The notes below the pieces were generated by a model. That model worked only from the letters and a program-made list of their open reading frames with translations. It was not told where the DNA came from and did no database searches. Shown in pieces: positions 799 to 55,820 of a DNA stretch of 64,000 nt (position 1 is the stretch's first letter; the number at the start of each line of letters is the position of its first letter). The position numbers were made by a program, and so were the translations under genes. Origin of the DNA: Marsupella aquatica (taxonomy: Eukaryota > Plantae > Marchantiophyta); NCBI GenBank assembly GCA_973895155.1, contig OZ316898.1, forward strand, positions 498,751 through 562,750, read 5' to 3'.

Positions 799-4248
<3,450 letters not shown>

Positions 4249-6390: not shown

Positions 6391-6429
6391 GGTTGTTTGA
6401 GTATGGTCTTCTATCCGTCTTTCCTTTGC

Positions 6430-9580: not shown

Positions 9581-9720
9581 GAGGCTTTGAAAATAGTTGC
9601 ACTCTTACGATTGCAAAAACGCTGAAAGCATATACAATATTTGGTTATTGAGGCTTTGAAAATAGTTGCACTCTTACGATTGCAAAAACGCTAAAAGCAT
9701 ATACAATATTTGGTTATTGA
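9581..9720. repeat. 69-bp tandem duplication
   Basis: gaggctttgaaaatagttgcactcttacg... occurs at 9581 and 9650, with 1 mismatch seen. Confidence 0.88.
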
Positions 9721-21672: not shown

Positions 21673-21997
21673 TTCAGTCTAACTGCACTCGGCATGCACG
21701 TTAGGTGGGTCTTAGGCCGCTATTATTAGCATAATGACAGTATTTAGGTAATCATTAGGGGTAGGACATCATTAGGTAATAAGGGGGACTTCAGGTTCGG
21801 GCTGGCGGCGGGTCGCTATTCGCACACCCGGGTTACGAGCGTGGAAGGGCCCCTCCCTCGGGTCCGTATAACGAACTTAAGGAAGCGGCCACTGACGCAC
21901 GCTGACTCGGACCGGCGGAGTGGCCGGTACACCACAATCGTGAGCGGTTCAGCCTATGGGCGTCGAGGAGACGTCGGGGATTGACAAGCCCTCAAAG

Positions 21998-22004
21998 TAT
22001 AAAA
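21998..22004 (+). promoter_or_regulatory. TATA box of the LTR (copy at 15979-15985)
   Basis: TATAAAA followed by a pyrimidine-rich patch, about 100 bp upstream of ATG 22106. Confidence 0.6.
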
Positions 22005-22105
22005 GGGGAGCCAACCCTTTGTAGTGCACCAGTCCATCAGTCTGCGCGCCAGCTTCGACCCCAGCTCTCTCGTTCTCTCTAGGTCGCCACTACTATCTCC
22101 TCTGA

Positions 22106-24757: not shown

Positions 24758-26669
24758 CGGCGGAGTAGGAATAGATTAGGATTAGGATTGGCTTAGTCAG
24801 GCTCTTGGGATAGGCATCTGCCTTAGGTATAGCAGCGCTGCCCTGCTGTCCAGCCTGCGTAGATTAGGATCTTCTAATAAGACACAGCCATTTTCCGGCC
24901 TAACTGTCAGCTTAGTTAGGACCTTAGTCAGCGAATCTTCGGCGAGAGGACACCCCGTCCCTCGGCTCTTAGTATTTAGTGCACCCCTCGGTAGAGGCAG
25001 GGGGGTTTTTAGTTTCAGAGTCGGACATCCGCGGGATATGCGGGGAGTCCCGACCTCTGGGAATGAAAGAGTACCAAGGGGAGGGGGTAGGACTAAGCTC
25101 ACCGGGCGAGTGCGGAGCCGGGCTCCGTTGTAGTGTGCACCCTCGGCCTTGAACCTGTTCATTCCAGGGCTGTCGGGTCAACTAAGTGTACGCATATGTC
25201 CCCTTTGTAGTAAAATCCTTTCCCATCATTTTCCTTCGTGTAAATCGAGATTGTATGCATGTGTGCGCATATGTGTGTGGGTTTCTCGTATATGGGTGGC
25301 AGCGCCAGGCCAAACGCACTACCCGAGACGTGCACAGGGTGCAGCCTGTGGGTAAGTGGTTGCGAGCACGGGTTGGGGACCTGTATCATCGAATCCGGAT
25401 CGAAGGCGGACAGCACGAAGGCTTAGAAGCCCTTAAGCCGGGGTCGATCCTGCTATCGACTAAGGTACGTTCCGGCGGCGGAACACAAACCATACCTAGG
25501 AGGTGTCTGTATTTAGCAGTAGGCGCACTTAGCGCTAGTTTACGAGAATAAGGTGCATTACGTGCTTCCCTTCCTGCCCGAACCCTCAGATTTACGAGGG
25601 ATGTGCCCATCTAAGCTGAAGTCTGAGTTAAGGCCGAAGCCTACGACGTGACAGAGTGTCTTCATCATTAGGTTGATGGATTTCTTCGATAGGCTGCTTG
25701 TGATATTCATGGACGGATGGGTCTCATCAGACCCCCACTATCCATCTTGACCACACTTTTGACAATGCATTTCAATGGCCTTACAACGTGCTCAAGCTTG
25801 AGAAATTTATTGTGGACACGTCAATGTGGGTGCTGTTGTGCCTCAGAGGACACTTGCCCCCTAGAGTACATTCCTATCCCACTTGCGGATTTAATTAGTA
25901 CACTAGATATGGACTATTAGCTCTTGCCACATGTACTTCCTACTAGTGAAGTCTTAGCTACTCTTCCCCTTCTTTCCTTCTCGTTTTCCAGGGTTGCCCT
26001 TGCTTTCATTTTTTCTTGTTTGGTGTTTGTACTCTTTGGACCTGTTTTTCTTTCCTTCCTTCTTTCCTTTCTTTTGTTTTGTTCCAAATTAATAAATTTT
26101 GGTGGAAGTTTAAGTCTTCAAAAAAAGAAAAGAGTTTTGTTTTTCCCATCATTTGCTAAATTTCGCCCCCCGGGGCCCGGGTATCCCGCTGGGTTTCGCA
26201 CCGGGCGAAAAGCTGACGACAGCCAGGGCCGACTTTTTCTTCCTGCACTCGTATTCCGATACAGACTACGAAGTAATTTTTTACTCTGAGAAAAGAATCC
26301 TCCCTGCAAAGCTGATCGATGGCGACTACGGCACGATTCGAATCGCCTACGATTCGCGCTTTGTGACGACGGTGCGAGAACAGCAATGCTACTGTACTCT
26401 AGAGGCCCAGGAGAGACCCAGCTACACACGCATCAGGAGCTCGATTCCGGGAAGTGTGGAGCCTTGCCGTGAAGATTGTGAAATGGGCTTGCGGTGATCC
26501 TTGAAGTAGAGTGATCAGGAATTGCGATCTCCATGCTCTGTCCGAGAGGGAGAGAGTGAGTGGATTGGGCTCAGGAGCTATTCGTGGTTGAATCGTTGGT
26601 CTTGGGATACGATAGTGGAGGGAGGAAATCGGCGATTCAGACGGTGATCAGAAAGCAGAGCAATCCATC

Positions 26670-29600
26670 ATGGACGGGAGGTCGTTCGCGCTGGCTGTGG
26701 TGGCCTCGATGATACTGGTCACCGCGGGTTTCTTGGCTGGAAGAAGCGTTTCCCCCATCGAGGTGGTGCAATCCTTGTCTTCAACGTGGTCCACTCCTCT
26801 CGACTTTCTGCCCGTCTCGACGAAATCGAGCTCACTGGAGGAGGTCGTGCCTTCTCGTCCAATAACGACGGAATGGCCTAGCGAGTACATCGAGATGGAT
26901 GGTCAGTTGCGTTCCGTACTCTCTTCTTCTCTTCCCTCTCTTCTTCAGCTGCGAGCAGTCCCTCGCTCCTTCGGTCAGACTTGCGCTCTGGTAGTCCTAT
27001 AGCAACTGATGAAGAAGCTCTCGGATTGGTGTGTAAGTGGTCTTCGGGAATATGTTGATGGGCTTCGAACTCTTTCTTTAGCTATTTCTATCTCGAGATG
27101 TTCTTTTTATGGAAGGGACTCAATGACCACAAGCCGTCTAAAATTTACGGGACGAAGTTGGGTTATTGTGAGATAGGGTGGAGTGCCTGCAGACAAAATC
27201 ATAGAGACTTCTACTGTACACAGCGTACTGTTCGAAATTGTGGAATGATCTCGTGAATGATGAAATTTCTTTGTGGCAGTGAAACAAAAGGTGCTGACGA
27301 AGCAGCCTCACGAGTATCTCGACCTGGCGTCCATCCCGGAGTACTTCGATTGGCGAGATGTGAATGGTAATGCACTAACTTGCTCATAGTTGAACAGCTC
27401 ATTCTTACTAATTGTTGTTGTGATACTTCGAGTTGAGTGTCCACGTAGCCCTTATATGGAATTCACAGCTGTAACTCTTCACCTCGGTCCGTTTCTTCTT
27501 TGCTGTGCAGGAACGAGCTACGTGACCAAAGATTTGAATCAGCACATTCCTGTCTATTGCGGTTGGTGTCACTATTGATCTTGTCTCGCCATGTTGTAGT
27601 CAACATTTGCTCGAATTTTGGTGGTTTAAATCAGTAATTTTTGTAGTTAAAAGTCATGCGATATCACTATTTGCAGCTGGAAATCCCGTCTGTGGGTGAG
27701 GTACAATTGCATCACCTTGGATATTAGAGTTGAACAAGAATATGCATGTGTTTATTTGTACAATCCGTGGCGTCCTTCTTCCTATTATCTCACGGTCAAA
27801 ATCAGAAGGAAGCAAATGACCTGTTGAGGTCATTCTTTCCCCAAGAAGGGTTTGCGTATGTGTTCATGGCTAGAATCCCGGGCGTCCTTTTTACTACAGT
27901 GTCGGTCAAAATTTCAGACGGAAGCAAATCGCCTGTTGAGGTTCTTTTCCCAAGAAGGCTATAATCTAAATTGATATACTCAGTTGTAGTCGTTCTTTTG
28001 CTCTGCAGGCTCTTGCTGGGCTCATGCAACCTTGAGCGCCTTGGCCGATAGGCATAAAATACTCCGGAATGCACAATGGCCTGATGTTGAATACTCTGTG
28101 CAAGTGTAAGGCTATCCACCCTTTTAGCTGTAATATGAGTGGCATCTATCTTTTCTGACTGAACATGTTCTCATACTGGCCGATTTAGGTCAGGAAATGG
28201 ATACTTATTTGGTCCTTCCCCCCGTGAAGACTGGAAATTGTCAGCTCTCAGGGTCTTGGTATCACATGTGGCTTTCCTGCATCTGAAAATCTTTGCACAT
28301 TGTAGCGCTGGTTATCATAGGAGTCTAAATTTTCTAATTGCGTCAGCCATTTCAGTTTCTTTGCATCTACAGCCATATCGGAAGTGAAGCATTTTCGTCA
28401 CTGAAAACATTGGTGGTTTTGCAGAGTGTTGAATTGTGGGCAGGAGGTTGCTGGAACCTGTGATGGTGGGAATCCTCTTGCCGTGTATCAATTCGCACAC
28501 AACTTCGGCTTACCTGAGGACACATGCCAGGTCTAGTTCTTATGGGATGTCCATTTCCATTGTCCCTTGGCTGGTCGTGACAAGTTTGTAGATAATTCGT
28601 TGTGCCAAAGTTTGAGTATCGGTCCTGATCTGGTAAATGATTGCGCATTACCGTACTGATAATTCGGTTCGCACATCAAAGACTTTTGCCAAGTAATGCG
28701 TGTGGAAATGCAAGGTTTTCTGGCAGAACGTGACTCTTTGGGCCCAAAGTTTTTATTAGGAGTGGAAGTCAGGATCCAAGTTTAGTGGGAGGGCATATAC
28801 GTATAGTGTCTTGTCCTTGGATACAATAGTAGAGTACAAGACTGTCTACCTTAACTTTTGAGATACCGTAATGTCTCCGATCGAAGAGATTCTCTTGTGA
28901 TCTATGGCAGCTTCTCCTGGACAATATGCAGTGTCGTATTTCTGTATGCTGAAGCTGGTATTTGAGACCTGCAAGTGTACCCCCGCAAGTAGTCCTCTTA
29001 AGTAAATCATTCATTGAGCGAAAACCTCCCAGTAGCTCCTCCGAGCTTAACAGATGTGATTCAGAGAAAATCAGTTAGTAGAACTGTATCTAGGTCAGAA
29101 ATCCCAGTATCTGGATGAGAATTTCCTGGATAGTCCATCGATCTGGAGACTTCAACGGAGAGAGGTCCATTCTCCGACAATGATCTAAAAATTCTTCCAC
29201 ATGATTCGTTCCTCCCTTCCGAACTCAATTATATCGGCTACTCCAGCGAAGTCGTTAAATATCTGTTCCCGTCCATCGAATGGTGACAGTACGATGAGAC
29301 ATTGTATGCTTCCCCGCAATGCTTCTAAGTTGTTTATTGATGAAGTTGTATTTGCTGTTATTGTGGGTACTCGGCGAGCAGCTTTACAAGGCTGTTGATG
29401 AGGAATGTACACCAATTAACATTTGTCGCGATTGTTCACCACCTGCTGGAAACATCTTATCCTGCCAAGCTGTCTCTGGTTACACTCAGCATTCAGTTTC
29501 CGAGTACGGGATAGTCTCTGGAGAACTGAACATTGTAAGATCTCTCGCCATCTTTTAGTGAGGATTCTTTACCCGTCATGGTGCTGGATAATATCTACTG

Positions 29601-30848
29601 TATATATCGGCCTCGACTCAATAACCACATTTGTGTCTGTACTGAAGACTCCCTAACGGACGTTGGTTTACAGATGGCGGAAGTTTACGAAAGAGGCCCG
29701 GTTGCTTGCCTAATTGATGCCACTGTTCTGCACGACTACTACGGAGGATACATTATCAAAGATACGTGAGTACTTTCGGTTTTCCCTTTCTGGACCTCAG
29801 CCACAAACAGCTTCCTTTTTAAAGTTATATCGCTAGATTGAATGAACTATGGCTTGTGGACACTTTCATTCTGGGTACAATGAGTTGTGATTGATAAACT
29901 GGTCCCGTGATACAGAGATTGATTTAGTATCTCCTTTCCGCAGTGCAGATGTTTCTGTTCAACATGTTTGAATAACAGTCAGCATGGGAAGTGCATGAAT
30001 ACTTTGCATGCCGTGAATTGAACTCAACCTCGTAGGCCAAGCAGTGAGAGGGGTGGGATTGTTTCTGTCTGGACGTTGTATAGCGTTTCTGGGTAGCAGT
30101 ACTTGTCGAGTCCAGGCTGTGTATACGGTAATCGTTCTAGATCATTTATCAATACCCTACGGTCACTTCAAGTCTTTCTGGAGGCAGCCCCACTGAAGTC
30201 GGCAGGAAGATATCACTGTGTTAATAATGGTCTTTTAGTCATACTAACAGCATTGAGGAAACCGTGTGCAGTGTGCCAGCTGCTCACAACCATGTGGTGA
30301 GTATTTCCGGGTGGGGTGTGGACAATGGCGTTAAGTACTGGGTGGTGCGAAACTCTTGGGTAAGATTTCCCCTTCCACAATTTGTTTTGTTTATTTGCAG
30401 TTTCTCCTAGATGTGGTTTCTGTTCCTCAAGATATGTTTTGGAACTTGTTATCTAAGGAATGTACTCCAAATCGTGAATACCAACAAAACAGTGATAAAG
30501 TAATGGTTGGTGTATCCCTCCCTAAATGTTTTGGAACATATCATCTAGGGAATGGCAGCAAATCGCGAATACCAACTAAACAGTGATAAAGTAAGCAGCT
30601 TGAGAAGACTGCTCACCGAAGTAGAATTGTTGCAGGTTTAGAGGTGGTACTCTGGATAAACTTTTGGTTATTTCTTTTCAAAAACTAATTCTGTCATGCT
30701 GACAAATGCACAGGGTACTTACTGGGGTGAGAAAGGCTGGTTCCGCATCATTAGAGGGGTCAATGCACTGGCCATCGAAAGTAGTTGCTCCTGGGCTGTT
30801 CCCAAAGATGGCGGCTATTGCTTTTCAGCCCATGGTCTTAAGTGTTAA
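26670..30848 (+). CDS. CTSZ: Cathepsin X/Z-like papain-family cysteine protease (9 exons, 346 aa)
   Basis: Exons 26670-26901, 27280-27366, 27511-27561, 28009-28105, 28425-28530, 29382-29534, 29674-29765, 30272-30359 and 30714-30848 total 1041 nt in frame. Contains [37 protein letters not shown] and [16 protein letters not shown], with an N-terminal hydrophobic segment. Confidence 0.92.
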
Positions 30849-33242: not shown

Positions 33243-35011
33243 TTAGTCAATGGGCACCTCTACCTCCATTTTCAAGCCAGCTTTACTTAGGACCTACCAA
33301 AGGAACAATACCACTGTGTCAGTGACCCAAACCACATAACTCCAACCCCTACAACAAGCTTGATTGACCAAAAATTGGAGCCAAAGGAACTTAACAGAAT
33401 TTCCTGAAAAGTTGATGAGCTGGCATTTCGCCTTAAAAAAGGTGACTTTACAATACCTCTCTAAACTCGTCTGGGGCCAAAGAGCTATCTTTTGAAAAGC
33501 CTGATTCTTCCAGTGCTTGAGTTACCACAGCCTGCACAGGACGGAGAGCAGCGACCATAAAGACAGAGTATTGTTTCAATCTAACCAACTTCGCCCTGCT
33601 CAAAAACTATTCAAGGGATACTGGGACGTGTGCATTCTTTTCCTAAAAAGTATGACCACAAGGCACTGTAAGGTATGGTGCGGTACCTGGCGCTGCTCAT
33701 CAGTGAGAAATGAACCCGAAAGATCTCGTAAGACTTGCATGATATCGTCGCGTGAAATTTTTCCGTTGCTTCGAATGTCATAGACTTTAAAAACGACTGC
33801 AGTGGAAGAAATATGAGATTTATGTCATTCAAAAAACTAGCAACTTGTGGCTTCGTTGCTTACGCATGTAATCTAGCTTACTAGAAGTACAAGTTTATCT
33901 ACCCATTCCAGAACAACGCATTTCTGAATCATCCTCCATCACAGTCCAGATCTCAAAGTCGGTGTGGGTCATTGTTAAGACGTGGAGATTTAGAGGTAAG
34001 ATATTTACAATCTAATTTGTGCTGGATCGGTGCTCTTGGGCTGAAAGCTGACAGGACTGCAACAAACTCCTTGAAGTTCAAGCCTTCCAGTAGTCCCAAC
34101 AACCTCTGTATCAGAAAGACAGAGGAACCAAAATAAGTTGACAAGCTGTCTATGATAGCTCCTCTAATACTGTAAGTTATAATTCATTATTTCAAAACGG
34201 ATGGGCATGACGACCTTCGGTGAGAGGGCATCCGAAGGCACTTTCAATCCCAATATCATGTGCTTCTCCTACTATCCAGCTCTCTAAAGATCTAATTTGA
34301 AAGAAAGCAAAGTCTGAACCGACCTGTGAGAGCGGGTTGAGAGCGAATTCTGGGACAGACATAAACTCGTCTCCAGAAATGTAGCCTTTTCCATTGCGAT
34401 CTAAAGCGCAGAATCTTTGATACAGAGACACTATTTCTCTTTGAGAAACTGCAAACCAGGATCCACATGAGCGATTTCTCGTCCAAAATTACAATTTCTG
34501 TTTCACTAATTTAGCCGTGTACTCACAATCGGACAACAACTCCAGATATGAGCGTCAGTCGATAGGCCATTTGAATCGTACAAATTCCATAACCTGATAG
34601 GAGACAAAAGCACATCCTAGCGGTCTCACGGAAAACTTGAAGTTTCTTTATGAACCTGCCTTTGAAAGTATCAATGTAGGGGCCAATGCGTACATCTCCT
34701 CCAGGAAATCACTGTCTAGTATAGTGGCCAAGGCGTGCATCTCCTCGAAGCAATCACTGTCTAATGGACCCTAACAAAATTTAAGCAAAAGAACAATGCC
34801 ACTTTACAAAAACCCAAGCTCCTCTGATTTTAGCATGTCGAACTTGAGATCCTCACAGTTGCGCCTTTGTCAGTGAAAGGTTCTGGAAGCCAATGACAAA
34901 CGCACTCATCTCGGTAAGAAAGAGGGACAGAGAGACCTCACATAGATGAGAACAGTGATTTTGCACCTCCTCGATGTCGTACTGGGTTAGCATGGATGTG
35001 TTGTTCCCCAT
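33243..35011 (-). CDS. Calcineurin B/CHP-like EF-hand calcium-binding protein (6 exons, 175 aa)
   Basis: Exons 35011-34942, 34448-34324, 34105-34009, 33796-33687, 33531-33457 and 33293-33243 total 528 nt. Protein reads MGNNTSMLTQYDIEEVQ..LYQRFCALDRNGKGYISGDEF..FKVYD..MEVEVPID*, with an MGxxxS myristoylation motif. Confidence 0.93.
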
Positions 35012-36016
35012 CCTTCCCGGCTTTCAATTTCCGCAAGTGCTTCAAATTCCCGAGCTATCCAACTTGAGTAGACACGGACACCGAGAAACCCACCTGAAAT
35101 GCAAAAATGGGGCAACCGCACCGGACAGTCCTCGAACCTCTCAGAGAGCACTCGCTATGGCCTTCGATCGAGATCGACACCTGAATTGCGGCCGTCCGCC
35201 GTGCAGCAACGAATCCGAGAGCAGCACCAACAATCGTAGCTGATCCGCGGCCATCTCCAACGAAACGATAGCAGAGTCGCAACCCCTGCCCTGCCCTGCC
35301 CTGCCCTGCTTTGCTCTTCTTGGCCGAATGCAAAGTCTCGTCGCTCGGCTTGCTAGTGTACACTGAACATCAGTCCCAGCAAGTATATTCCGCGTCTTCT
35401 TCTCGTGCACGTAGGTTTTCTTCGTTACTTAATTGTTATATATATATCAAATTGCCAAAACTACAGGAACGCCATACGCTACACGGTCCCAAAGGCAAAA
35501 GAACCCAATAAAGGGGGGAAGGGACCCCAAGAAAACCAAAGAGGCCCCACAAGTTAAGGAGTATCCCACAAAATCCAAAAGACCAAACGACAACCTAAAG
35601 AACCCTACTGGGCGGTAAACTAAAAAAGCGAGCTCTAGAGTAAACTGCCTTGAAGGGTCACAGAGGGGAATTTGTCTAGAGGCCCTAAAATGGATTGCCT
35701 TGGCCCTGCGTAGGATAGTGAAAGTCTGGGCCCCCTGAAGGGTCACTGACACCCTCTGTCGAAAGAAGGCCACGAGGACAGAAACAAAGGGAAAAGGCCT
35801 CTGCTCGATACAAAACACAACACAAGCCTGAAGGAAGTGGTCAAAATGAGGGTGGAGAGCGCCAAAGACCTCAAGGGTAAAAGGGTAGAAAAGATCCCCC
35901 GGGTAACGAACCGCATAAGCCTCCTCCTTGAGCCGAGCCGCCTTGGCGGCAGCATGTCCAGGAACATAGGCTGCCTCAACAACATTACTCCCCCCTAGTA
36001 GGATCTACAACCACCA

Positions 36017-39000
36017 TGTGATGCCGTGCCAGGATCACGAAGTACTTAGTTAAGCCTAAAATAATGGCTAAATAAAGATTAGGTAGATATAATTAGGGAG
36101 TTATAAGGATCGAAGCCGATTGCAATATGTTCGGGGGAAATTGTGATGGGATCTGATCCAATGGTCGCGATTAAGTGGGATTAGGGTTATGACCTAATCA
36201 GGGCTTGATCAGGTAAGCCATCAGGAGGCGGCTTCGTAGGGAGGGGACCGACACTCTGTACACTAGTGCAATTGCTTGATCGATCAACCTAGGGAGGTGG
36301 AATCAGCTGCCGATCGATCGGAGGAGGTGGTTTGGGAAATTGCGCAAGTTCTTGGCATTCGGTGGAATGAACACGGTGAATCAGGCGGGGAAGTTTTGGG
36401 GTTGTTTGCTTGAAGAAACAAGGCAGCTGATACCTACGTATGAAGACGTTGAGCCGGAGCGCGCAGCCAGAGAATGAGCAAAGCTTGCGCGATTGTGGGG
36501 AATTCACCAATCGGCATTCGTAGATACAGAGGAGGTGTTGGAAAAGTTCTCGTGGACACCCACCAGTGCGGAGCTTGACGAATTGCTAATTCGGGAGAAT
36601 AAGGTCATGGGGATCAGGGAGGCAATCAAGAACGTCGGGCAACCACTTTGGGAATTGAAGGGTCACACTGCAAAGTGGACGAAGGTAGCTATTCTTGGGG
36701 AGTATTAAGGCGCTGAAGAGATGAAGCGCAAGGGAGTTTCGGCATCTGCAACTCCAGCAAAGTGAACTAGGTCGGAGAGACCAATCAAGATGGAATCCGG
36801 GCCAATTAGAGATCGGGCTGTAGAAGATAAAAACATGACAGGGTGGGCGAACAGGTTACCTGCCGATTTACAATTATAGTTTGCAAGAGATGAGGATGAG
36901 GTCTTCAGTGCCGTTCAGGATAACAAATATGCAGGATATATGAATGACATTGGGTTGGAGGGCTTTGTCAGGTTGTCCTGGAGAATGGTAGACATACCGG
37001 ATGAGGATCTGTTGGACTTCGTGGGATGCTGGGAGGCTTCTTCCAACACAACGATGCTGTATGAAAAGGTGTTTGAATTAACACCTGCGCTTATCGAAGC
37101 CGTGTTCGCTTTACCAACAGGAAGGAAGACAAAGGTGGAGCAGAGGAAGACGTTGCCGGACGACCAGTTCAGGTCATTTCCAGGGCCTTCCACTAAGAAT
37201 GGGTTTTTCAGGAATCAATGTACCAACCCACATATAGGGCAGCTGATTGATTTCCTGAGAGTCACATTGCATTGTACCTTGCCGAGAGCAGAAATCGGCA
37301 AAGCCCAGGTATTTTTGGTAGAGAATATTGATGCAAGCCGAGACTACAATGGCTATCTCTTAATGCAGTTGAAGAAGGCATTAAACGAAGAGAAGCAGAG
37401 CATTGGGGAGGGAGCGGTATCCAGACTAGGGTACCATCTGCAATTACTTTGCCGATATGCAAGAAGCCAGTCTTTTGCACCAGTGTTGCCTATACAGGAG
37501 CGGATGCGGATCACTGCACCACTTGAGGAGGTGGAGGAGGACGAGGAGCCTCTAAACATACGATGCCACGGGAGGAGGTCGGCAACACAGGCAACACGAG
37601 AACGGGAGCATTCCCCTATCAAGGAGCCAGAGGTAGTAACACATGATGTAGTGAGAAATCCGTTACGCCGGCCTACTCGTAATAATCCATATGCAGGCAT
37701 CCAGTTGGTCGAGAGGAAGATGACTGCCGAAGAGAGAAAGAAATATGATGAGCGAATGGATTCGGAGACAGATGAGGAGGTAAGCCGAGGCCAGGAGAGG
37801 CCGGTAGTAAAAGCTTCTAACAGAGCCCAAGTGAACGGACCCGTGGAGGAAGGTCAACCAGCAGCAGCCCAACAATTTTCAGAGGAAGAGATCGGGGAGG
37901 CCGGCATGTTAGGTAGTCGGGTTAATGTGGATGATTACGACGACGACTATGTCGATCACGGGGAGAGGCCGGTACCAGGAGTTAGAACGATGGGAAGGTT
38001 TTGTAGAAGACTTCCCGCGGTCTTCTATGGCAAACCGGAGGACCAGAAAATGCCAGAATCTCCTCCACCAGATGTGACGCCATTGGAATTCAACAAGATG
38101 AAGGAAGCTGAAGCCGGGCTACATGAGAAGATTAAGGAGTTGGGGGCCCGGAATGCAGAACACGAATGCCAGCTACCAGGAGGAGAGCTCGGAGGAGAGT
38201 GGCCGGAAGGAATAAGACGGCTTAGTGAGAGGCAAGCCGAACCTCTCACTGACTTCGACCAATTACGGGCAGAAGCTTGGGAGAGACGACCTCGATGGCA
38301 GATGCCAGTATCACCTGGGAGGTCAAACTATGCAAGAAATCGGGCTAAGGAGTATGGAGACATGTGTGGACTCTTAGCCTTAGAAATATTCGGCAACGAG
38401 TTGGAATCCAGGCTATTTCTTAGAAAAGAAATGGCTGATCAGACAAGACTGGAGGAGGCAATGACATTGGAGCATTTGAAGAAGAAGGAAGTAATCGCTC
38501 GACTTCACTCCATGGAGGCCGTAGTTGCTAAGACGAAGTCTGTCAACCAACTCAGCAGGATCTCTTGGCTAGGCAGTAGGAATTGGAAGTGGCAAACAAC
38601 CAATTGGAAAACTACCAATTGGATAACCAGCAGATCAAGGAAAAGTTGACGAAGATAGAGCTGGAGTTAGCCAATTCAAAAGTAGAAGTACAGGGTTTAA
38701 ATCGCCAAGTTGAGAGGCTCAAAAAGACGACTAAGGAGCAGGCCACCCAGAGCGAAAAGGCCTTGGCAGAAGCCCAAAGGAAGTATGATAAGTTACTTGA
38801 CCGGTTGGAGGCCATGCGTGAGAAGCATGATGACGCCATGTGCACGACGGCCAATGATCACCTAAACCGGGTTCAACAGATACGCAAGGAGCTTCAGGAG
38901 GAGCTAACCAGGACAAAGCAGGCATGGACGAACGAGGTCACAAAACTGGAAGGTATCAACGACTCCTTGAAAGCAACCGTAGATAAGCAAGAGTTGGAGA

Positions 39001-40651
39001 TCGTGCAGATCTTAAATGAGGAGTTGAAGACGGCCAGGGCCGAGATACTATGGCTTAACGATGAAGTTGAAGACGTATCTCAGGAATTGGAGGAGGCCAA
39101 GGATAAGATGGTCGGGTTGCAGAGGCGTGCCGACAATCAAACGCAGAAATTGAAGAAGTATGTCGAAGCGGGATATGGGTCACCAACTGAAAGGCTTCCC
39201 GACAGTAGTATGGTAGGCGGAAATATAGTGAAGCCGAAGCCGAAGCCAAGCTCCCTGTTGTCAAGCGTGACTGGGGGCAAAGCCATGCAGTTGGTGGCAG
39301 ACTTGGCAAAGACGTTCATGGGGCCAGGCGATAATAAAGTTAAGGCCCTTAAAGCCACTCCGGAGGAAGTCGAGAGCATGGCCGCTCACATTTGTGGTAC
39401 TGTGGCCCTGAAGGCAACGGTGGTAGAGGTAAGTACTGCAGATCAACTTGGAGCTACGGTAACAGGTTTAGATGATGGTACTGCTTCTATGGACGCACAG
39501 AATGTGAAACCGTGGGTTATCGAGATCGAGCGCATCGGGGAAAAGGCTTGGATTGAGGAAGTTAAGGCAAAGGCTCTCCAAGCCGTTTCCCAGGAGGATG
39601 CCAATGCAGATGCCGATGCCGAGACCGAGGCCAGGGCCGGCAAACCAGAAGCCGAAGTCAAGGAAGCCGAAGGGGTCAGGCCGGGGCCGATGGCAGGAGA
39701 AGGTGCAGAGTCGGAAGATTCGGACTTACCCCCGGTCATCTAACAATTAAGGAGGGCCAGTCATTGGTTGGAAGGAGGACATGGCGGCAGGAGAAGGGCT
39801 TGGGCCAGAAGGGCGCGGCCGTTGTAGGATGGGACAGGGCAAGTAGCGCCCTGTCGGCTTAGGTAGTAGTAGATGCTCGGTTCACACATGGTTCCGGGCT
39901 ATTCCAGTTTTTAGGTGATAGTTTTTTGGTAGGATTATCGCGGTGGAAGGCCGTGTGTGGTGGTTAGGATTTCCGTTTGTTTTTTCCTGAATGCGCTGCA
40001 AGGATAAAAACCTGGGCAGTGTGGCTTCGGGGGCTTTTTCTTAGTCAAGGCTTTAGTGTTAATCTGTATTGTTGTGAGCACAGGAAGCTCTCGGCTAAAT
40101 CTAGACCGTAGGGTATCAGTAAACCACCAGTTCCCTTGGATTTCTGAGCAATTGTTTGAATTGAGTTGGCCTCGTTGCATAGTTCGCAGATTCTTGCCAT
40201 CCAAGAAATTGAGTGTTATGATATCTGTTGCTTGATCGATTTAAGTCAGATAGGGTGAACTGTTGAGCAAAATACAATCGCATTGTCTTGATTGGAAACT
40301 GCCCAATCAAACTCTGAGAGAAAAGTGAGGATTGAGAGTGTTAGTCGGTGAAGTGTGGGTTGAGTCAGTCTGAAAAAGACCTTCAGCCGGCTTAAGAAAT
40401 TAAGCCGTAGAGGTACATTCCGGGGGCGGAATACAAATATACCTGAAGAAGTTAAAGAGGAATTAGGTGTCTCAGTTGTGCACAATTCACAAGCCCAGTG
40501 AAAGAATTGGTCCGGTAAGTGTGGATCGAAGGAGAGTATCGCGTTTCCAAGCCGAATAGCTGCCATAAGGCAAGAGGACGGACATAAACAAGTGGTTTAT
40601 GATCGGTTGAGGGTAGTTCTTGGGGTTAGAGGTCTTGGGAAACGTGCCACA
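36017..40651 (+). mobile_element. 4635-bp solo LTR-like insertion carrying a long ORF
   Basis: Starts TGTGATG and ends GCCACA, flanked by cacca (36012-36016) and tacca (40652-40656). Excision restores the host RLE frame LGDVVVVDPT. No gag/pol and no terminal direct repeats seen. Confidence 0.82.
36367..39743 (+). pseudogene. LTR-encoded accessory protein homologue (~1120 aa) with long coiled coil
   Basis: ATG 36367 is in frame with track ORFs 36493 and 36940. Stops at 36475, 36706, 36763 and 36877; a 1-nt frameshift near 38540; a further stop at 38577; then ORF 38583-39743. Aligns by eye to the 22106-24757 protein in two domains. Confidence 0.82.
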
Positions 40652-41379
40652 TACCACATCACCGAGAGAACGAACACCTGCCCAAGAAAAAACCAGGTCA
40701 GCCCGACGCATGTCAGGAACACCATTCCTAGGGGGAAGGACATGTTGTTGCTCCATAGCAACATGGTACCCAGAGTCCCGGGCAATGGCAACAACCACAT
40801 CCCAAATGTCATTGTCCTCTCGATCCCATGGTTGCACTGAAAAATATGAACATCGGATGGGTCCAGAGATGCCCACATACACAAGAGGGTCGGCCGAGGA
40901 GGCAAGGGTGAGGGTGGCCTAGACGGAGGTGTATAGATGTGGCGAAGAGGAAGGAGCTCATGCAGAAGGGGGCCCAAAGAGGACTTGCAGAAAGCCAGGA
41001 TCCTGAATTAAAACCCGAGCAAGATAAGAGGCGGGCCCAAACTGAGTCTGAACGTGCATCAGAGAGCATGCTAGAAAGTTAAGGGAGTGATGGTGCATGC
41101 GGTTGAAAATCACCTGCTGAACACAATCCATATTGTCAAAGACTACCTCCACAAAAGCAGAAACAATAGCATGCACAACTTTGGGTAGTAATGACCGAGT
41201 GTGGTAGAGCTAAACCTGGATAGGAAGACTGCCATCCTCCACCCCCATGACATGGTCAAAAAGGATGGGCTGAAGATCCATAATGAACCGGGAGGCCAGA
41301 GCAGGGCCCACATGTGCCCAACAACCAAGGATGACACAGGGGGCCATGGCCACAGTAGAGAAAACACCCATGCCCCCAC

Positions 41380-41706
41380 TGTTAGGTATTTACTCAAGGT
41401 CTACGGTTACGACATGTACCATAGTTAGGCTGACCATAGTTGGAGATGTGGTTAGGTTAACTAGGATGCACACTATATGCCAAACGATGTTTGCTTGGAT
41501 AAGTGGAACTTAAGGCTCATTGTTACGGAGCCACATGAGAGATGAGGAGAGCTTACACTGTGAAGACTTGGTTTAGCCGATGGGCTTAGAGTTCAGTAAA
41601 GCTCTCTTGTGGCCTCGAGGAGGTGAACCACGTACCTCTTGTGTCGACTACTTGATCGTTGGATGTGTCATGTGCTTACCGTTGTGATTGTCGTCTATGC
41701 TCAACA
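41380..41706 (+). mobile_element. 327-bp solo LTR
   Basis: TGTT...AACA ends with a perfect TSD CCCAC (41375-41379, 41707-41711). Removing it restores the host frame. Confidence 0.88.
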
Positions 41707-44700
41707 CCCACCGGACGGGGGCAAAGAGGCCTGCCGAGAAGCAAAAAGAACCGTCCTCTCCATCAGCCTCAGTACCAATAAGGTGACCAAAAGCCTCCAT
41801 CACGGTGGTGTCAAAAGATAGCCGAGACAGAAACATGGGGGTGGGAGGCAAAGTCCAAAGAATTGTTGGTTATGGTTGCAATTAAAGTGCCATGGATGAA
41901 AGGCGGACGGGCAATGGTACAGTGGAAGTGGTAGATGAGAAGGTATGTACCAGAGTTGGGGCAGGTATACTACCATGGCACAGTATTGCAGCACGATAAA
42001 GATAGAATATTATAATAACCTGCCTGGCAGGTGTCAATCTTGACTATATTTGATATGCGACTTCGTATGATAACCGGTTGGTCTTGGCTGCTGATGTTTG
42101 GCCTGGCCAGTACGGATTTTGCTATACCTGGTTTTATACCAGTAAATCCCATGCAGTATACCCTAGTGCTATATAATTTAGCGCAATGAAAAAAAATTCC
42201 CAACAGTCAAAGGCTAATCTGATTCTAAATAAAAAATCAAATGGACTTAGAGTGAAATCTTGAAAGCATAATCCATTTTAGTTGAAAAGTAGAAAATATG
42301 ATTTCAATAAAGTGTGAATAGTAAATAAATGAGAGGGCAATGAGTGAAAACCCTCACTAAATGACATTTTAAGTTGATAAAAAAATTAATGTATAGAAAG
42401 TGAATAGTGAAGGAATGAAAGAGCAATGAGTGCAAACTTACATTATAAGACAAGAGAGAAAAGAATTATCAGAGCACTTTAGTTTGATTCTTAACTTTCC
42501 ACTCAATCTGCACATAGGACAAAATTGTTTTTTACTAACCTACCCCCCAAATTAATCCGTGGACCCCCAAGTTCATTGAAGGAATATGTGTGTGATGAAG
42601 TGAAATTGTTTTATTGGAGCAAATGAAACAAAGTGGTAAATGTTTTATTTATGCAAAATAGTTTTATGATATTATATCTGATTTACCTAACAATGTCTAT
42701 TTTCCCTCTAGGTGGCATTGTACTTGTGCTTCAAAGAAGCGCCCACTGTCGATGTCTCATCCCTGTTTGGAGCGGGGACGTCGGTGATTCATAGGCCTTC
42801 CTCCCTGCTCCTCTGCAAACGATCGATCAGCGTCTGTGCATGCTCTTTGGCCAAGCTGACCAGCATGTCGATTGGCATCTTGAAGTCGTGCCTCAGCCTT
42901 GTCACCTGGGTTAGGTGTGCTCCCTTTGTATGTTGGATGTATTCACGTGCGCTTCCTTCTTGGTCAGCTGGTCTTCATTGAAAGGGACTTCCATGAACCT
43001 GAGGACCTCTTTCTGCACTCCTGTGTTTCAATTTGTGGTTGAGTTAGTACGTTATTGTTCTTGAATGTTGTGAAATGGGTTTGAGTGGGATTCTGAGCTT
43101 GTTACCTGTCGTTGGTCTGTCATTGTAGAGTTCCTTGAAATCTTTGAAGAATTTCTTGCAGTTGTCAATCAATTTTGACATGTCTCTTTTGCTGATGCCA
43201 GAGTCCCATTCCGAGGTCTCCATTCTCATACCGTCTGCGTACTCAATCTGTTTGGTCGTGGGGAAGTTTTTCTCAGGACTGTGGTCCCCTGTAGGCAGCT
43301 CACGCATGATCAATCACGCCGGCTTGACTGCTGTCATGGGCTGTAGTGAAACAATGACAAAGTGTTAGTTGGTGTTAGTGTCATCGTCCCCTCCTCTTCA
43401 TGGATCCTCAAATTCTGCAGCTCCCGTATTCACAGCCAGAATCCTGTCAATCGACGCAGTAGCGGATCTTATTAGAGTGGATACCCTCTTCCTTGTTCTG
43501 ACTGACCATACCCTCTTCCGTGTTCCGCTTCTATCCTCTGCCTTGTTCTGGCCATTCCTCTACACCTCAAACAACAGAAAACGATGCTCAGGCTCGACAC
43601 TACCCGACGCTCAAGCTCTAAGACACCAACAGACGACACCAACAGACTTACGTTACTTTCATTGGACTCCTCTACCAAGACATAATGCACTAGTCAATTA
43701 ACAAGGAGACTTTTTCTTTACTTTTTTAATTAACTCAGAGAATGATTGCTTTATTCTATGTTTTGAAAAAGACCCAAATGTAAATAAAACAGTTACAAGG
43801 ACAGTTTTGCCTCAGTTTTTTATCTTTTGATTTGCATGTCCTTTTTTTTTAATTCTCTTTGACGGCATGGCGCCCAGTTTTTACAGCAAAGTTGCCACAA
43901 ACACTAATGCAGAAGTTAAATTCTATCCAAAAACAAGTTTGTTCCTGTTTGCAGCGTGCCATGATGATGTGGCGCACTGTGGAGCCAGGAATTTTGGAAA
44001 GGACCTCTAATGGGGGTCCATAACTAACCATATTTACGAACCTGTCCCTCAAACTATTTTAATTCCTAAGTATATGGGTTAACTTCAACTCATGTGCATA
44101 ACCTGAGGTTGTTCCATATTGGTTGCATGACACATGGCAAGGTGTTGTTGGCCACACCAAACCCCGGTTGGGTCTACCCTAACCCAGGCCAACTCCTTCC
44201 CATAATGACAATTGAGGGAGTACCACCTCAGGTCCCTTGTGTTGCAATAGGGCCGCCACAACCCCGGCTTCCTCCCAGCCCCAATGAACCTGCAAAGACA
44301 GACCCGACAACAGGGTCGTCCTTCCTTCCCATGGCGCCCCTATTTCCTTCTCAACGGACTCTCGTTTCCAAAAGCGCTCCCAGGCCAATAGGGAATGACC
44401 TTGGGTTAAGTACATGCATTACAATTAACCCATGTACAAAAAGGGGGATTGACTTAGAAATTAAAATAGTTTTGGGGATAGATTGGTAATTATGGTTGGT
44501 TTGGGGGATAGGTTAGTAAGAAATGGTATAACAAAAAAGAAGGGAACCACACTCCCTCCTTGCTGAAGACTCTCTCCTCTGAATCTAGTAAAAATAAAGA
44601 TTTTCTTTCCTTTGCAAAGAGATATCCTATCTTAATTTAGTGCTCAATTTTTCATTAATGGAATGAAACTAGGTCCAAGAGTGCAAGTCATTCAAGTACT

Positions 44701-44980: not shown

Positions 44981-47900
44981 ATGGCAGAAACAAGGAACCT
45001 CCAGTTTTCAGGCAATCTAGTAACGGTGACCCGAACACGCAAACTAGAATCAATGAAGTGTGTGTTAGACGATCGGCGGGTACAAATCAGAGCATTGACA
45101 GTCAGAACGTGGGAGTGAGAAGAAATGGAGATGTTCATTGGGAACATTCTTACACGGCAACGTACTGCACAACCCAACCATCGGCACTAGGAAGAAGAAG
45201 AGGATCATGATCCAGCAACACAGTGGGATAGAGAGAATGACAAGAACGAAGACAAGGACGAAGAGGAATACAACAATCCCTATGACCCGAATCTGGATAT
45301 TGAAGTTGGATGTATGTTACTTGCAAGGACCTGCAAACTCAGCTTGTACACCTCCCAGAGGCACCTGAACATCTGTCTGTTGGGATGAGAGTGGTGATGA
45401 TAGTTGTGGATTGCAACGTCATCGCTAGCAGAATCTTGCACCTTCAGAAGAGAGGAATCATCCTCTACATTGTTGACTTCAACCCAACTCATGACTACTT
45501 CAAAGACTGGGGTATGACGTAGTCAATGCTGGCATGAGGGTCAAAATTGAGCAAGTTAAGGTGCTGGCTTGCTATAACTTTCTCATTGTTGTGTCTAACC
45601 CGGAAGACCAAAACACATTCTGATGGAACCTTACCTCAACATGGGCAGGCATATGGTGGTGGCCATGCCCACGACCATGCCTTGGACACCGGATTTTGAT
45701 ACAAGGGCGATGAAATCCACTCAAGCCCAAGTGTTAGATGATCTACCACTGCTTAACCCCGCATTTGAATACTATGCCAATCAGATGCTAGCCAAGGTTG
45801 GCACTATGCTTTATGCTGACACATAAATCTAGAAGCAAATTCTCTCATAGTTGAGGTTGTGTCTTATGCAACCTTAATGACGACCTGATAAAATTCATCA
45901 ACCTCTCAATCCCAGGCGTAGGAAACTATAAAGTGGATGTCATTTATTGCACTCTCCCTGATGCATGCTTTGGTTGCAAGCAAAGGGGACATAGCCTCAT
46001 ACTGCCCCAACAAACAAAAGAAAGCACCAAAGGAAACAAATCAAAGGACTTGGAAAGACATGAGCAACCAGGGAGAAGAACCTAGGAAATCAGCTAAAGA
46101 CACTGAAGGATTTCAAACAGTGGGCAACCAACAAGGGAGCAACAATAAGCATACAGGAATAATACATGATAGCAACAAAGCTGACACGGCCAACCCCTTT
46201 GCTGCTCTAGCTGATCTTGAATAAGGGGAAATTGAAGGTGGAGACTAGATTGTCCAAGGAGACATCCCAAAAAAATATATCCAGTCTTTTGACTCAACCA
46301 GTCAAGCTTGAGAGTAAGAGGAAAACAACATTGAATTTGGTTGTACAGGTTGATTCTTCGTTTGTCATTCAGAACAACACCCAACCCAGGCTCTCACCAA
46401 CACCTCCCAAGAGCCAAAAGCTCTAATGCTGACCACATGGAGATCAAAACGCAAACAAACCCAAGGAAAGCAACTAGCTCACCAGCAGGAACCAACATCA
46501 CCGGAACCAATAATACACCAAAGAAAATGCAACAAAACACACAGGTGTTGAAGAAGAAAAACAATGATCTTTTGGCAGCAAGGAACCTTCCTTTGCTTCC
46601 AACAAAAGGATGGCCAAACTGATACCAGAGGAAACACTCAATGAGGTATTCTACACTGAAACTCACCAATTGCAACCAACACAACTCTTAGCAACTATAG
46701 TTCATCACTAAAAAGTGAGTCCACGAAAGGAGGTACACACCAGAAGAATCGCGAAATCCCAGTCCAGATCAATGGAGGGGGAAGAGATAATCAAATTCCA
46801 AATGGAGACAAAACAAGGACACCCAGTCACTCGGTGATTCTACCCCAACAATGCTTATGATGACAGCAACCTCACCAATTGTAACTGGAACGTGAGGGGC
46901 TTGGGAGAACACTCTCACGCACTACGGTTCAAGAAGTGGATCAGTGAACACCACCAAGAACTCTAACTCCACCTACTTTAAGGTGGATGTTGGTATCATT
47001 GACTCCCCAACTTTGGAGCAGATAATGGAGGAAATATGGGCAAAGCACATAGTTGAGCATGAGGATCCAAGAGTGAACTGGAATTAAGTGGGGGGAGTGA
47101 TTGGGAAGTTTCTACAAAATGAAAAGAGGAGGACAAGATGTGGTTGACCATTCATCTGGGAAACCGGCTGCAATAGCTTAGGTTTGCCCACAATCAGATA
47201 GAAATTGATGAACTGCAAAGAGAAGAAGAAAGGGCCCGGAAAATGGCAATGGAAGAAGCCACCCTAAACTTCTGCGCTTTAGGGTGGCTTCTTCCATTTC
47301 TTCTTCTTCGATCACCGACAAAGTCACATATGAGGGTAACTGTGCCCTGGTTGTCACTCCTAGCGAGGAAGAATTTGAAAATACTGTCCACGACCTCCCT
47401 AAAGACAAGGCCCCTGGAATTGATCGTGTGACTGCAGAGCTGTTGAGGAAAGGATGGAACTACATGAAACCTGCCTGCATCAATTTGGTCTGGGCATTAT
47501 AGGAAGAAGTCTGCAAGGTCTATAGCTGGGTAATGATGGTAGCCTTTGCCACCAGCTATTTGCAGACGATACAGGCCTTTTTCTATCCACCAAAGAGGCT
47601 GAGTTCAACACTACAAGAGACACAATTCAGCAGTACAAAGATCTCCAATGCGCTGTTGAATATTCAAAAATCCAAGATCATCCCCCTCTTCATAGAAGGG
47701 GCATCTATTCGAGTTGGTTAACTCATACCCGTTGTAAGATAGTTAAGGAAAGGGAAATCATAGAATACCTGGAATGTCCCATTGGGTACAGGGTGCACCC
47801 CTCCCAGGAAATGGCTTCTTGATGGGAAAGTGAGAAAACAATTTTTTCACTGGAATGACCAATGTCTGACCATGGCGGGCAGAGCTATCCTGTTGAAACA

Positions 47901-48130
47901 CGTGCTTTGGGCCATTTCCACCTACCATCTAATGATCCTTGAGCTCCAGCTGACCGATTATTGGGAACTAGAAAAGATCTGTAGAAGATTCTTATGGGGA
48001 CCTTCACAGTCTAAAGGGAACAAAAAGTCCTCATAGCGTAAAAAGATATCACTGCTGCGAAAGGTACTCACTTGACATCAACCCTTTCAGCAAACAAGCA
48101 CAGGCTTTGAAGATGCAACACATCACAACC
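44981..48130 (+). mobile_element. Degenerate, internally deleted L1-clade LINE
   Basis: ORF1-like region with zinc knuckle CFGCKQRGHIASYCP (~45965), endonuclease start NWNVRGLG (~46883), and RT-region motifs KDKAPGIDRVTAELL and AGRAILLKHVL..LEKICRRFLWG. Many stops and frameshifts. Confidence 0.8.
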
Positions 48131-48497
48131 CCAGTTTCACTTCAGAGTGATCAAGTCCATTCATAATGAACGCATGCCCTTTATAATGAGAGGGTAACCC
48201 ATAGCCCTTATACAGGTAGTTGTGATTTAGGAGGTTCAAGGCAACAATGTAAAGCAGTTGAGCCATGGAGAGCTAGGGTACACCTAGCATGCCTTTGATG
48301 AGCAAGCCCCTTGCTTGGACACCTCCAAACAATGGATTCTCCTGAAAGCTTTTGGTCGCTTTCCAACAGAAGCTCTACTAAACTCCGACATGGTGAGGAT
48401 GAGGTATGTGTTTGTGTACATTTACCCATGTGCGAAGACAGTGGCCAAATAAAAAATGCTTTAATTTACAGACTCTACTAAGGTCCCACATGTAGTG

Positions 48498-49615: not shown

Positions 49616-52600
49616 TTATCGTCTCCCACCATCAAACTCGTCAAGTCCCTCAACCGGTTGCCAAAGCTGTTTTCTGGCCATTAAGATCTTCTCATCCCCA
49701 TACGATAGAGCATCTGAAGCCAGTGTAAAATCTTCTTTGGACCATTTATCCCAGCGCAAGGCTGTCAAATACCTGCTGATCTGATTCACCATGGAAGCTT
49801 TGTCCCTGATAATGATGATCCCCAAAGGTCGAACTATGCGATCCATCTCAAGGAGCAGATCCTCGATGCTGCAGCCTCTTTCATCTACTTTAGAGAACAC
49901 ATTCCACGCATGCAAAAGGTCGTATGTGCGAGGATATGTTGAGAAGGCTTCACACCTGATGGGATAAACGAGTGAGAATGACTTACTAAAAATAACAAAT
50001 AAGTAGTATTTAAAAAAAAATGTCAGCAACGGCTAGAATCTGAGGACTAGAAATTCGTTCGGCGACCTTGTAACAGCAGAATCAAATACGGATTATGAAA
50101 CTTAGCTGCCCATATACCAAAGAAAAATATCCACTCACCAGTCATGCAATGATCCAATGAGACCACGATCGTACACTGCCTTCAAGGTGTTAGGAGCGGA
50201 TGGGGCTACCACGTTCATAACCCACACGGGTTCCTTAGCCAAGGCTGCAGAAAACCCTCCAAAGTTGGCATTCATGTCCATTATATTCCGGACACTGTGA
50301 GATTCAAGTTGTCCAGCCTTCTTCAGCTGTTTCCAGTAAAATTGGACCCTCTTTTCCCAGACAAACTGTTCTGCAGCAAGGTTGTATTCATTAGTCCTCT
50401 GCTTCTAATTAAACACTCAGGGTTCAGAAATTGATGGAAAACATTGTTTGTACGACAGCTCACAGGAACAGTGGTCCCAAGAATTGTTCTTCAAGGCAGA
50501 TTTGCATTACCGTGTCTGTCTGAAAGGTCTTATCGCTGATAAGATCATCACGCAACCTCGGTGGAATAGCGGTTAGTCGCTGTGGCCATGGTTCCACGGT
50601 ATCTTCATAATCTGCAAAACGAACCTTTCAGATTCGCATTCGACAACGAATAACAGTGAAGGGAAATCCCATATCGGCCTGGCCAACAATGATATTGAAA
50701 AATCTGGACCTGGATAAAGAATGCCAAGACTAGACTAGGAGTACACCTCCATAACACCGCAATCTCCTTGCAGAGGGCGCTGACAGCCACAATTTATGCA
50801 CCAACGGTGCATCCTAGCTCTCCCGGCCCACAGTTAGGAAGCGAAACTTACATTTTGTCAACGGCGTAATGCAAGTCTTCATTTTGACAGACCAAGACTC
50901 ATCTGGATCCTCACGTGCGCTGCAAAGAGGAGGATGAGTTCCTGGAGCTCGTTCTTCATAACATTCATTGGTCAAAGGCTTTCTCCAGATGACGGTTTGA
51001 AGCTCTTTAGCGACTTGTTCCCAGCACATATTCTTCACAAGGATGTTCATTTCATCCCATTCCTGCCTGTCAGAATCGGTCTCCTTATACACTGCCGGGG
51101 ACGACCAGGCGAAGAAACCACCCGGTCTTAACAGGCGGTCGACTTCAAGAAGCAGGATTCCATCCCGCTTGTGCCAATCGATACGACAGCGGGAGCAGTG
51201 CGCCAAATCGAAAGACTTACTCGGGTAGGGAAGTCTCATCGTTCCCAGTACACCCAGCATCGCTGGAATTCCTCTCTCAAGGGCAAACTGAATTTGGTTA
51301 GCATGCACGTCATTAGGGGCTAAAGACATAGCAATTATATCTAGAGGCAGCAGAAACGCTCCAAAACTGGCTACTCCACAACCGACATCAAAGACTACTC
51401 TGATCTTTCCTCCACTGCTGAGATCTCCGTCCTCATTCCCCAACATCTGCACAGCAACCAGAAAAAAAGTTGAGAATCTAGCCACAGAGATCAATTTGAT
51501 AAGAATTCAAAATCGGTAAGTCTGTAGCACTACACTTTCCTGCAGATCATTCCCTGTCTCGAATTCATGAAAGCCTAAGCATGTGGAAACCAAATGAGGA
51601 TTAAACTGAGGACAACTCGAAGTGTACCTTGCCGAGATTTGCTATATACTTGTCTGCTCCATCATGGAAATGCGTCCCGCCGCCCGGAAAGGTAGCTTTG
51701 TCACCCTTAAGCTCCATCCAGTGCTGATCTGACTTGTTCACAGCAAGAAATGTATGCGGGACGTTGGCTTGCCAAACTGCGTCTCTACTTCGCGGCCACC
51801 GAACAGGTACCTAAGAAGAGATTCTAGAGAACATGTGAGTAGCCAGTCATATACTTTGAGCGCTGTGGGTTAGAAATAATAAAAGGAAAACTGAAAACAA
51901 AGCTAGAGCGTGCAACAAACGAAAAGCATTGGTGTAAAAACCCTTTGAGGGCAAACTACTAGCTTTGAGACCATGTGGATACGGAAGGATACCAAATGAG
52001 GATACATACCTGGTAATTAGGAGGAGGAGGAATTAGACAGTTGAGTCGCCGGTGGGAAGGCGGGCAATGACGTTCATAATGTTCCATTACTGAGGTATTC
52101 AGCTTCATTTTGAGCTTCTTCTGAGTCGGCTGGTCCAGGCAGGGAATCAGCTCAGAGAACTCTTGGCTGCAAACCTGGAACCATGGCAAATATGAAGCTT
52201 CTCAGTCCTTTTGCTGCATTTGCAGTAAATATCATCGATCGTTTAACATCTACAGTTTAGAACACTGTGGACATTCTCTACCGGCAGGAAGATACAAAAA
52301 TTCTGGCTAATGGCATCAAGTGTGCAAGCGAGGGGGACAAATAAAGTCCGAGAGAACCCCAACGTAAAGAATTGATAGCAACCAGAACGGAAAGCATTCC
52401 ACAAATTGCAGCAAAAACAATTATAATGTCAAATCCGCGCCACTCACCGGAAATGACTTTAGCGTGACTTCGTCCATTCCCTCTTCGTCTTTGAGGTCAT
52501 CGGTGCCAGTCTCAGTATCTTCGGTTTCTGCCTCCTCCTGTAAATCTTCCTTGTCCTCATCTTGCTCCTTGTCAATTTGGCGCAAGTGAGAATCGGAGTC

Positions 52601-55544: not shown

Positions 55545-55820
55545 CTATTATGCTTCAAATTCATCTAGAAAAACTGAAAAGGAAGCATGGATGGACCATT
55601 AGAACCCAAATGTCACCCCATATTGGTTAGTTGCGGCATGATGATTTAGGAGTTTGGGAGAGAACCCTGCCATTGTTGGTCACCTACTATTGTGCCTCAA
55701 ATTAGTCTAGGAAAACTGAAAAGGAAGCTTGGATGGACCATTGTAACCCAAATGTCACCCCATATTGGTTAGTTACAACATGATGGGCTGGGAGTTTGGG
55801 AGAGAAGCCTGGTATTGTAG
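55545..55820. repeat. Diverged ~142-bp tandem duplication
   Basis: tctag(a/g)aaaactgaaaaggaagc..cccaaatgtcaccccatattggttagtt occurs at 55564 and 55706. Confidence 0.85.

Follow-up and report, generated by a model that had tools for sequence, protein, structure and literature searches.

A gene family inside the giant long terminal repeats of two elements in Marsupella aquatica, with possible remote kinship to the PMD/DUF1985 group

Accessory genes of plant elements and of a retroviral LTR

Extra open reading frames (ORFs) of plant retrotransposons have been described, in the sections available of the relevant papers, from the internal region of the element (PMC6317226, PMC11963269, PMC3485330, PMC6431247, PMC5418596). 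For example, the 'PMD-CC' ORFs of the non-chromovirus Tat/Ogre elements (PMC4408406) are, like the genes described below, large sense accessory ORFs of plant Ty3/gypsy elements with long LTRs, and encode a globular domain with a coiled coil behind it. However, these ORFs are reported as internal, 5' or 3' of gag-pol, and match PF10536, whereas ours lie inside the LTR, encode an additional N-domain and have no PF10536 match. PMD has been reported in 57% of Ogre elements (PMC6317226), PMD-A clades have been described (PMC5418596), moss Tat-like elements are reported to be without extra ORFs (PMC4408406), and the available text of three papers reports no function for retrotransposon-borne PMD (PMC11963269, PMC5418596, PMC4408406). 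Similarly, Retand TRP28, Athila ORF1 and Retrosat2 ORF0 (PMC11963269, PMC6317226, PMC3485330) are family-wide accessory ORFs of large plant Ty3/gypsy elements, but these are described as internal, TRP28 in antisense, and our protein has no Pfam match to PF04195 or PF03078.

VANC proteins (DUF1985; PMC5735166, PMC13547354) are a second point of comparison, being element-encoded accessory proteins with a coiled coil and a conserved domain amid variable low-complexity linkers; DUF1985 is also the nearest named family to our protein in the ESM Atlas. VANC is reported to bind arrays of motifs that share one orientation and lie in non-coding stretches of the element that encodes it (PMC5735166), and pentamers of VANC and of the Athila domain, formed via coiled coils, have been modelled (PMC13547354). 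In contrast, VANC is described from eudicot VANDAL/MuDR DNA transposons, whereas the host element here is Ty3/gypsy, and our protein, known from sequence alone, has no PF09331 match and no long motif or tandem array in its LTRs.

A protein gene inside an LTR, copied along with it and retained by solo LTRs, has a precedent in the sag gene of MMTV (PMC4667437). The likeness is one of layout and implies no link in sequence or function, as sag encodes a superantigen in a retroviral U3, whereas the ORFs described here, of 883 to about 1,125 codons, may sit downstream of the LTR promoter. In titles and abstract openings, which covered few subscription papers, we found no account of a large LTR-borne gene in a plant retrotransposon; since a gene in this position is already known from MMTV, we regard the layout as unusual but not unique.

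Two elements with a gene inside the LTR

The two elements lie in a 64,000-nucleotide stretch of M. aquatica contig OZ316898.1 (the window). Element 1 (15621-25653, + strand) is a Ty3/gypsy retrotransposon that starts with TG, finishes with CA and is flanked by an exact 5-bp target duplication, GAGTG (15616-15620 and 25654-25658), where 0.16 exact duplications are expected by chance across the 164 candidate ends. A single frame with stops (16646-21672, +) encodes the remainder of gag (zinc knuckle), protease, reverse transcriptase (RT), RNase H and integrase, in the Ty3/gypsy order of the last four; Pfam gave no match to a chromodomain or a second RNase H. Its RT resembles what we take to be the non-chromovirus (Athila/Tat/Phygy) lineage. 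The integrase frame extends 33 nt inside the right LTR (21640-21672), and a polypurine-tract-like run (21627-21636, +; nine of ten purines) ends 3 nt ahead of that LTR.

The right LTR of element 1 (21640-25653, +; 4,014 bp), delimited by repeat comparison, its ends and the depth profile, contains the whole accessory ORF (22106-24757, +; 883 codons with six internal stops). The sole TATAAA of this LTR (21998-22003, +) is followed by a CT-rich tract and stands 108 nt before the ATG of the ORF, as a candidate LTR promoter. The left LTR (15621-16645, +) is 97.6-97.8% identical but has suffered two deletions: its first 531 bp match 21640-22170 (97.6%) and 16147-16645 match 23559-24057 (97.8%), so that the equivalent of 22171-23558 is missing, and a cut at the equivalent of 24057 has taken the LTR end, the primer-binding site (PBS) and the start of gag. 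The pair differs at 24 of 1,030 sites, 20 of them by transitions. The first deletion shows a short microhomology, GGAAG (16146-16151), and the second (16636-16645) fuses LTR ORF sequence to gag, with the PBS and capsid removed.

Element 2 (36017-40651, +; 4,635 bp, TG...CA) is a solo LTR, with no gag-pol between its ends, and is bounded by its termini, target duplication, contig depth and empty-site joints. The left target-site copy is CACCA (36012-36016) and the right TACCA (40652-40656), four of the five letters matching with one mismatch. The relic that it interrupts, a non-LTR retrotransposon, reads on across the insertion site, with the downstream part at 35447-36016 (-; reading continuity and empty-site contigs) and the upstream part from 40652 to about 41300 (-). 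Its accessory ORF spans 36367-39743 (about 1,125 codons) with one frame change: frame 1 (36367-38649, +) has 760 codons with four internal stops before 38647, and frame 2 (38580-39743, +) encodes the coiled coil (about residues 1-198), behind which lies a small region at the C terminus. TATAAA is absent from the element 2 LTR.

Public contigs provide further copies. Element 2 DNA was present in six public runs, none recorded as RNA, of which four were examined. Summed contig depth, which is not copy number and was used for boundary steps only, was 3,907-22,476 inside element 2 in run X1 against 546-1,449 in three pure flank bins, and drops after 40655; over the element 1 LTR it is high throughout and falls in run X1 from 82,189 to 1,795 after 25667. 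Contigs of runs X2 and X6 join across the whole of element 2, representing the empty site. A loose end behind 40652 carries TGG within a few nucleotides, resembling a PBS (seven contigs of X2, agreement 0.63); no tRNA matched it, and none of the contigs listed extends to gag. The LTR units of both elements are high-copy.

In both elements the ORF lies wholly inside the LTR, starting 350-466 bp from the LTR start and ending 896 bp (element 1) or 908 bp (element 2) before its end. We are highly confident of this anatomy, and position inside the LTR is the most solid feature of the accessory gene; as a consequence, even an orphaned end-repeat carries the whole gene. The DNA of the two LTRs has almost no similarity, the best match being one 35-bp hairpin motif near the LTR end (25463-25497 in element 1, 40411-40444 in element 2, both +; blastn 86%, E=1e-4). 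RNAfold predicts a stem in both LTRs, and the hairpin is a candidate RNA signal. An Rfam search gave no match.

Both LTR elements sit inside the C-terminal part of related non-LTR relics (14479-15620 and 25654-25750, +; 35447-36016 and 40652-41300, -), the likeness of which is seen between 14479-14886 and 40869-41299 (tblastn E=1.7e-11). From their motifs we assume these relics to be restriction-like endonuclease (CRE-type) non-LTR elements; Pfam gave no match for them. Two of two insertions in such relics may reflect target preference or relic abundance. Other repeats in the window include an inverted pair about 68% identical and 2.5 kb apart (7047-8719 and 11223-12705; no Pfam match), which may be two repeat copies or long terminal inverted repeats, a 67% identical inverted repeat (41384-41706 and 57422-57754), a MITE-like unit with 50-bp inverted arms (44022-44501), an imperfect palindrome (14069-14241) and two-copy tandem duplications of 63-168 bp (5551-5886, 6269-6394, 9579-9716 and 55545-55818). 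Pieces of host genes encode a metallophosphoesterase (733-1128, +), a plant Methyltransf_29 protein (49616-51506, -) and an EF-hand protein (33600-34490, -), presumably calcineurin-B-like, with exons about 1.5 kb from element 2. The segment at about 29300-29770 (+), without a Pfam match, may in our assumption hold papain-family protease exons.

Conservation of the protein and decay of the window copies

An earlier note on this DNA had proposed, from motifs aligned by eye, that both elements share a two-domain protein family, and had not pointed out that the gene lies within the LTR. The motifs that it quoted share one frame from 36367, and the likeness is borne out: searched with tblastn against the window, the element 2 frame (stops as X) gave a single non-self match at E<1, with 27% identity over 195 aa (E=3e-15) at 23054-23632 in element 1. 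In shuffle tests the core pair scored 183 against 29.5+/-4.4 and the N-domain pair 53 against 23.5+/-3.8, with none of 1000 shuffles reaching 53, while two cross-pairings were not significant (352/1000 and 391/1000). The N-domain likeness is thus weaker than that of the core, and tblastn gave no N-domain match, yet it is significant. Among 1110 six-frame windows, the best match to the N-domain outside the element 1 copies was the element 2 N-domain (53), ahead of the next unrelated window (44). A third block ahead of the coiled coil, alike by eye, was rejected (553/1000 shuffles).

The proteins share a layout of N-domain (about 115-125 aa), variable linker, core (about 200 aa), a P- or D/E-rich linker and a coiled coil. 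In element 1 the N-domain runs to about 22480 and is followed by a P/Q-rich linker, a basic patch (KKRK at residue 289), the core (23039-23650), a P-rich linker and the coiled coil (about 24206-24733). In element 2 the N-domain (36367-36711, +) is defined by the shuffle test against its element 1 counterpart, and the core (36880-37485, +) is stop-free and, as an Atlas lead, likely PMD/DUF1985-like. The coiled coil proposed in the earlier note for both proteins is supported by a heptad heuristic and weak coiled-coil Pfam matches, whereas the basic patch it placed before both cores is present in element 1 and replaced in element 2 by a K/R-rich stretch (20%, residues 116-170) with a stop within. 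The cores themselves are little basic (K+R 29 vs D+E 26, and 23 vs 27). Neither protein has a transmembrane segment (top 19-residue hydropathy 1.11-1.34) and Pfam gave no Gag match, so the gag or env identity that the note had weighed against its own reading finds no support in the sequence.

The coding frames contain six stops (element 1) and four (element 2), whereas each of the remaining five frames has 23-39 or 16-43, respectively. Conservation at the protein level without similarity of the DNA, a collinear N-domain and few in-frame stops indicate selection on the accessory gene, and by this sequence evidence the gene family inside these giant LTRs is real and selected. Word searches recovered a third relative, the 220-aa fragment P0003 (E=7e-22), their lack of further matches being a weak negative; no relative was found in the metagenome and viral contigs scanned, and PDB sequences gave no match to the accessory protein. 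That the ORF is a dead passenger with no role, an old insertion or a chance open frame, is very improbable, for although both window copies are broken and the ORFs of both LTRs span GC-rich DNA, the conservation is of protein only, the position in the LTR is the same and the stops are private to the element 1 copy.

Decay is a property of the copies in the window. At five of the six internal stops of element 1, 96.6-100% of the depth in X1 and X2 carries a codon other than a stop (among 40 of 449 rows), and an indel difference near the frame change of element 2 was seen in three of four runs (among 40 of 842 rows). Because other copies differ at the breaks, these are features of the window copies, and the family's frame is open at those five stops. 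Run X6 covers the core and the last kb of the LTR and leaves much of the linkers and 5' part uncovered, gaps to which we give no weight. In run X1, A>G and T>C make up 116 of the 206 places that differ; the window copies have decayed mainly through loss of C and G, as expected of methylated DNA, which suggests that they did not escape silencing. These copies are broken and the full protein is probably not made from them. The observed/expected CpG ratio is 0.75-0.94 in the LTR elements (21640-25653 and 36017-40651) and 0.27 in a relic at 45800-48200, presumably LINE-like from its motifs; the higher ratio of the LTR families may reflect youth or weaker methylation.

Possible kinship of the core and modes of action

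The earlier note had described the protein family as unrecognised and had likened its core to the plant mobile domain. Pfam, searched with the intact cores and with fragments of them up to E values of 5-10, gave no match to the four profiles it had named (PF10536, PF03078, PF04195 and PF20167) or to PF09331, and the accessory protein had no Transposase_28, Transposase_32, Athila ORF1 or Gag/capsid match; the N-domains had no relevant match. The family is therefore unrecognised by Pfam, and by HMM the accessory protein is not a PMD or DUF1985 member. The kinship survives as a lead from the ESM Atlas, where the core scored as protein-like (2483). Its best clusters are unnamed (0.93-0.94), and the nearest named families are DUF1985 (0.91; 154 of 256 features) and PMD (0.90; 168 of 256, a label that sits on 20% of the cluster's members), both below the 170 features that true members typically share. 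The nearest 30 clusters listed are all streptophyte, and 30 matches to named clusters comprise 17 to DUF1985, three to PMD and ten without a common family. The ten best family-bearing matches belong to one family or clan, although ten agreeing clan matches also arise for a third of shuffled proteins, and the cluster and named-cluster results count as one source of evidence. AlphaFold models of the core are too low in confidence to be used (pLDDT 34.0 and 35.5), and the absence of Foldseek matches to the first of these at E<=0.001 therefore carries no meaning. In our assumption, the helix, short hairpin and LT-x6-F-[GA]-LP motif of the core resemble the PMD/DUF1985 families. On balance we consider the core a probable remote relative of this group.

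If so, the protein may act on silencing. PMD and the DUF1985 domain of VANC are reported to be structurally alike (bioRxiv 10.1101/2024.09.27.615353; PMC13547354), which makes the analogy with VANC better founded than it was in the earlier note. As a whole, the explanation that this is a PMD/DUF1985-like DNA-binding accessory factor acting on its own family in the manner of VANC is our tentative preference, with somewhat less than an even chance of being right. The LTR's own promoter would transcribe the accessory gene, with the ORF placed first on the genomic RNA and solo LTRs included as complete transcription units; the protein would oligomerise via its coiled-coil tail, bind LTR DNA of its own family and dampen silencing by the host, in parallel with the action of VANC on behalf of VANDAL transposons. 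The TATAAA 108 nt before the ATG and the CT-rich tract make it likely that the gene is read from the LTR promoter, and transcription from this box to an end within the final 900 bp of that LTR, so that each LTR is a unit, is rather more probable than its opposite. Anti-silencing in trans by a protein bound to short repeated motifs outside the coding part of the LTR is, if anything, slightly more tentative than the explanation as a whole. On the + strand of the non-coding parts of both LTRs, TTAGG shows a mild excess (counts of 10 and 7 where 2.6 and 2.7 are expected), but this does not hold up once all 1,024 five-mers are allowed for (best p=3.5e-4), and ATCGA outranks it across both LTRs; neither LTR holds a long motif or tandem array. 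The low basicity of the cores and the methylation-like decay of the window copies also count against such a role. That the LTR is a fully self-contained anti-silencing gene, the repeat itself holding a promoter, a PMD/VANC-like gene, its target motifs and a poly(A) signal, is doubtful.

A serious rival to the LTR-promoter reading concerns expression and origin only; the element 2 LTR, as noted, lacks TATAAA. The ORF would lie in U3 with its own upstream promoter, as in MMTV sag, genomic RNA would start downstream of it, and a 3' internal accessory gene would have been drawn into the LTR. A 3.6-kb R/U5, which transcription from upstream of the ORF implies, would be unusually long, and TTAG clusters also occur immediately behind the ORF (14 where 5.7 are expected). 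Both LTRs lack a second TATAAA downstream of the ORF, however, which speaks against this arrangement, and we regard it as possible though clearly less probable than transcription from the LTR promoter. Precedents are reported in sag itself (PMC4667437) and in the 3' extra ORFs with their own promoter of Grande (cited in PMC11963269).

A job in the replication cycle, for the same gene and possibly the same fold, is unlikely: the protein would bind element RNA or cDNA, for example at the shared hairpin, or tether the integration complex to particular chromatin. The hairpin near the 3' end is the only DNA feature common to both LTRs, the integrase has no chromodomain match, and both elements interrupt LINE relics that are related to each other, in each case within the C-terminal part; two insertions, at different positions of an abundant repeat, are however too few to indicate targeting. 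A Tat/Rev-like regulatory role has been proposed for TRP28 ORFs (PMC11963269), whereas the PMD/DUF1985 members tested are reported to act on chromatin silencing (bioRxiv 2024.09.27.615353, PMC5418596, PMC5735166).

Equally unlikely is a core of new fold unrelated to PMD/DUF1985, in a coiled-coil scaffold or a particle-associated or env-like factor. The lack of an HMM match or of one in PDB sequences, the single relative from word searches and the unnamed best Atlas clusters are consistent with such a fold, and extra ORFs are reported to have many origins (PMC6317226), including an ASY2-like domain in ATLANTYS (PMC13547354). All named Atlas neighbours nevertheless fall within DUF1985/PMD, and the absence of any hydrophobic segment (top 19-residue hydropathy 1.34) speaks against an env-like role.

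Surveys seek extra ORFs in the stretch that the LTRs enclose and count LTRs, solo ones among them, as non-coding. A gene of 900-1,100 codons in this position is therefore easily missed, and LTR-borne genes could explain why some plant lineages have been scored as without extra ORFs. If the core is PMD/DUF1985-like, the family bears on whether PMD arose in retrotransposons or host genes, stated as an open question in PMC5418596, as a deep branch relevant to a derivation of PMD/MAIL genes from Ty3/gypsy elements, and supplies two diverged protein-LTR pairs for probing VANC-like anti-silencing in retrotransposons. Should the anti-silencing explanation hold as well, a retrotransposon would have a system of the VANC kind: the many solo LTRs that host recombination produces would go on supplying a factor that frees the whole family, and the host's main route of retrotransposon deletion would seed helper genes.
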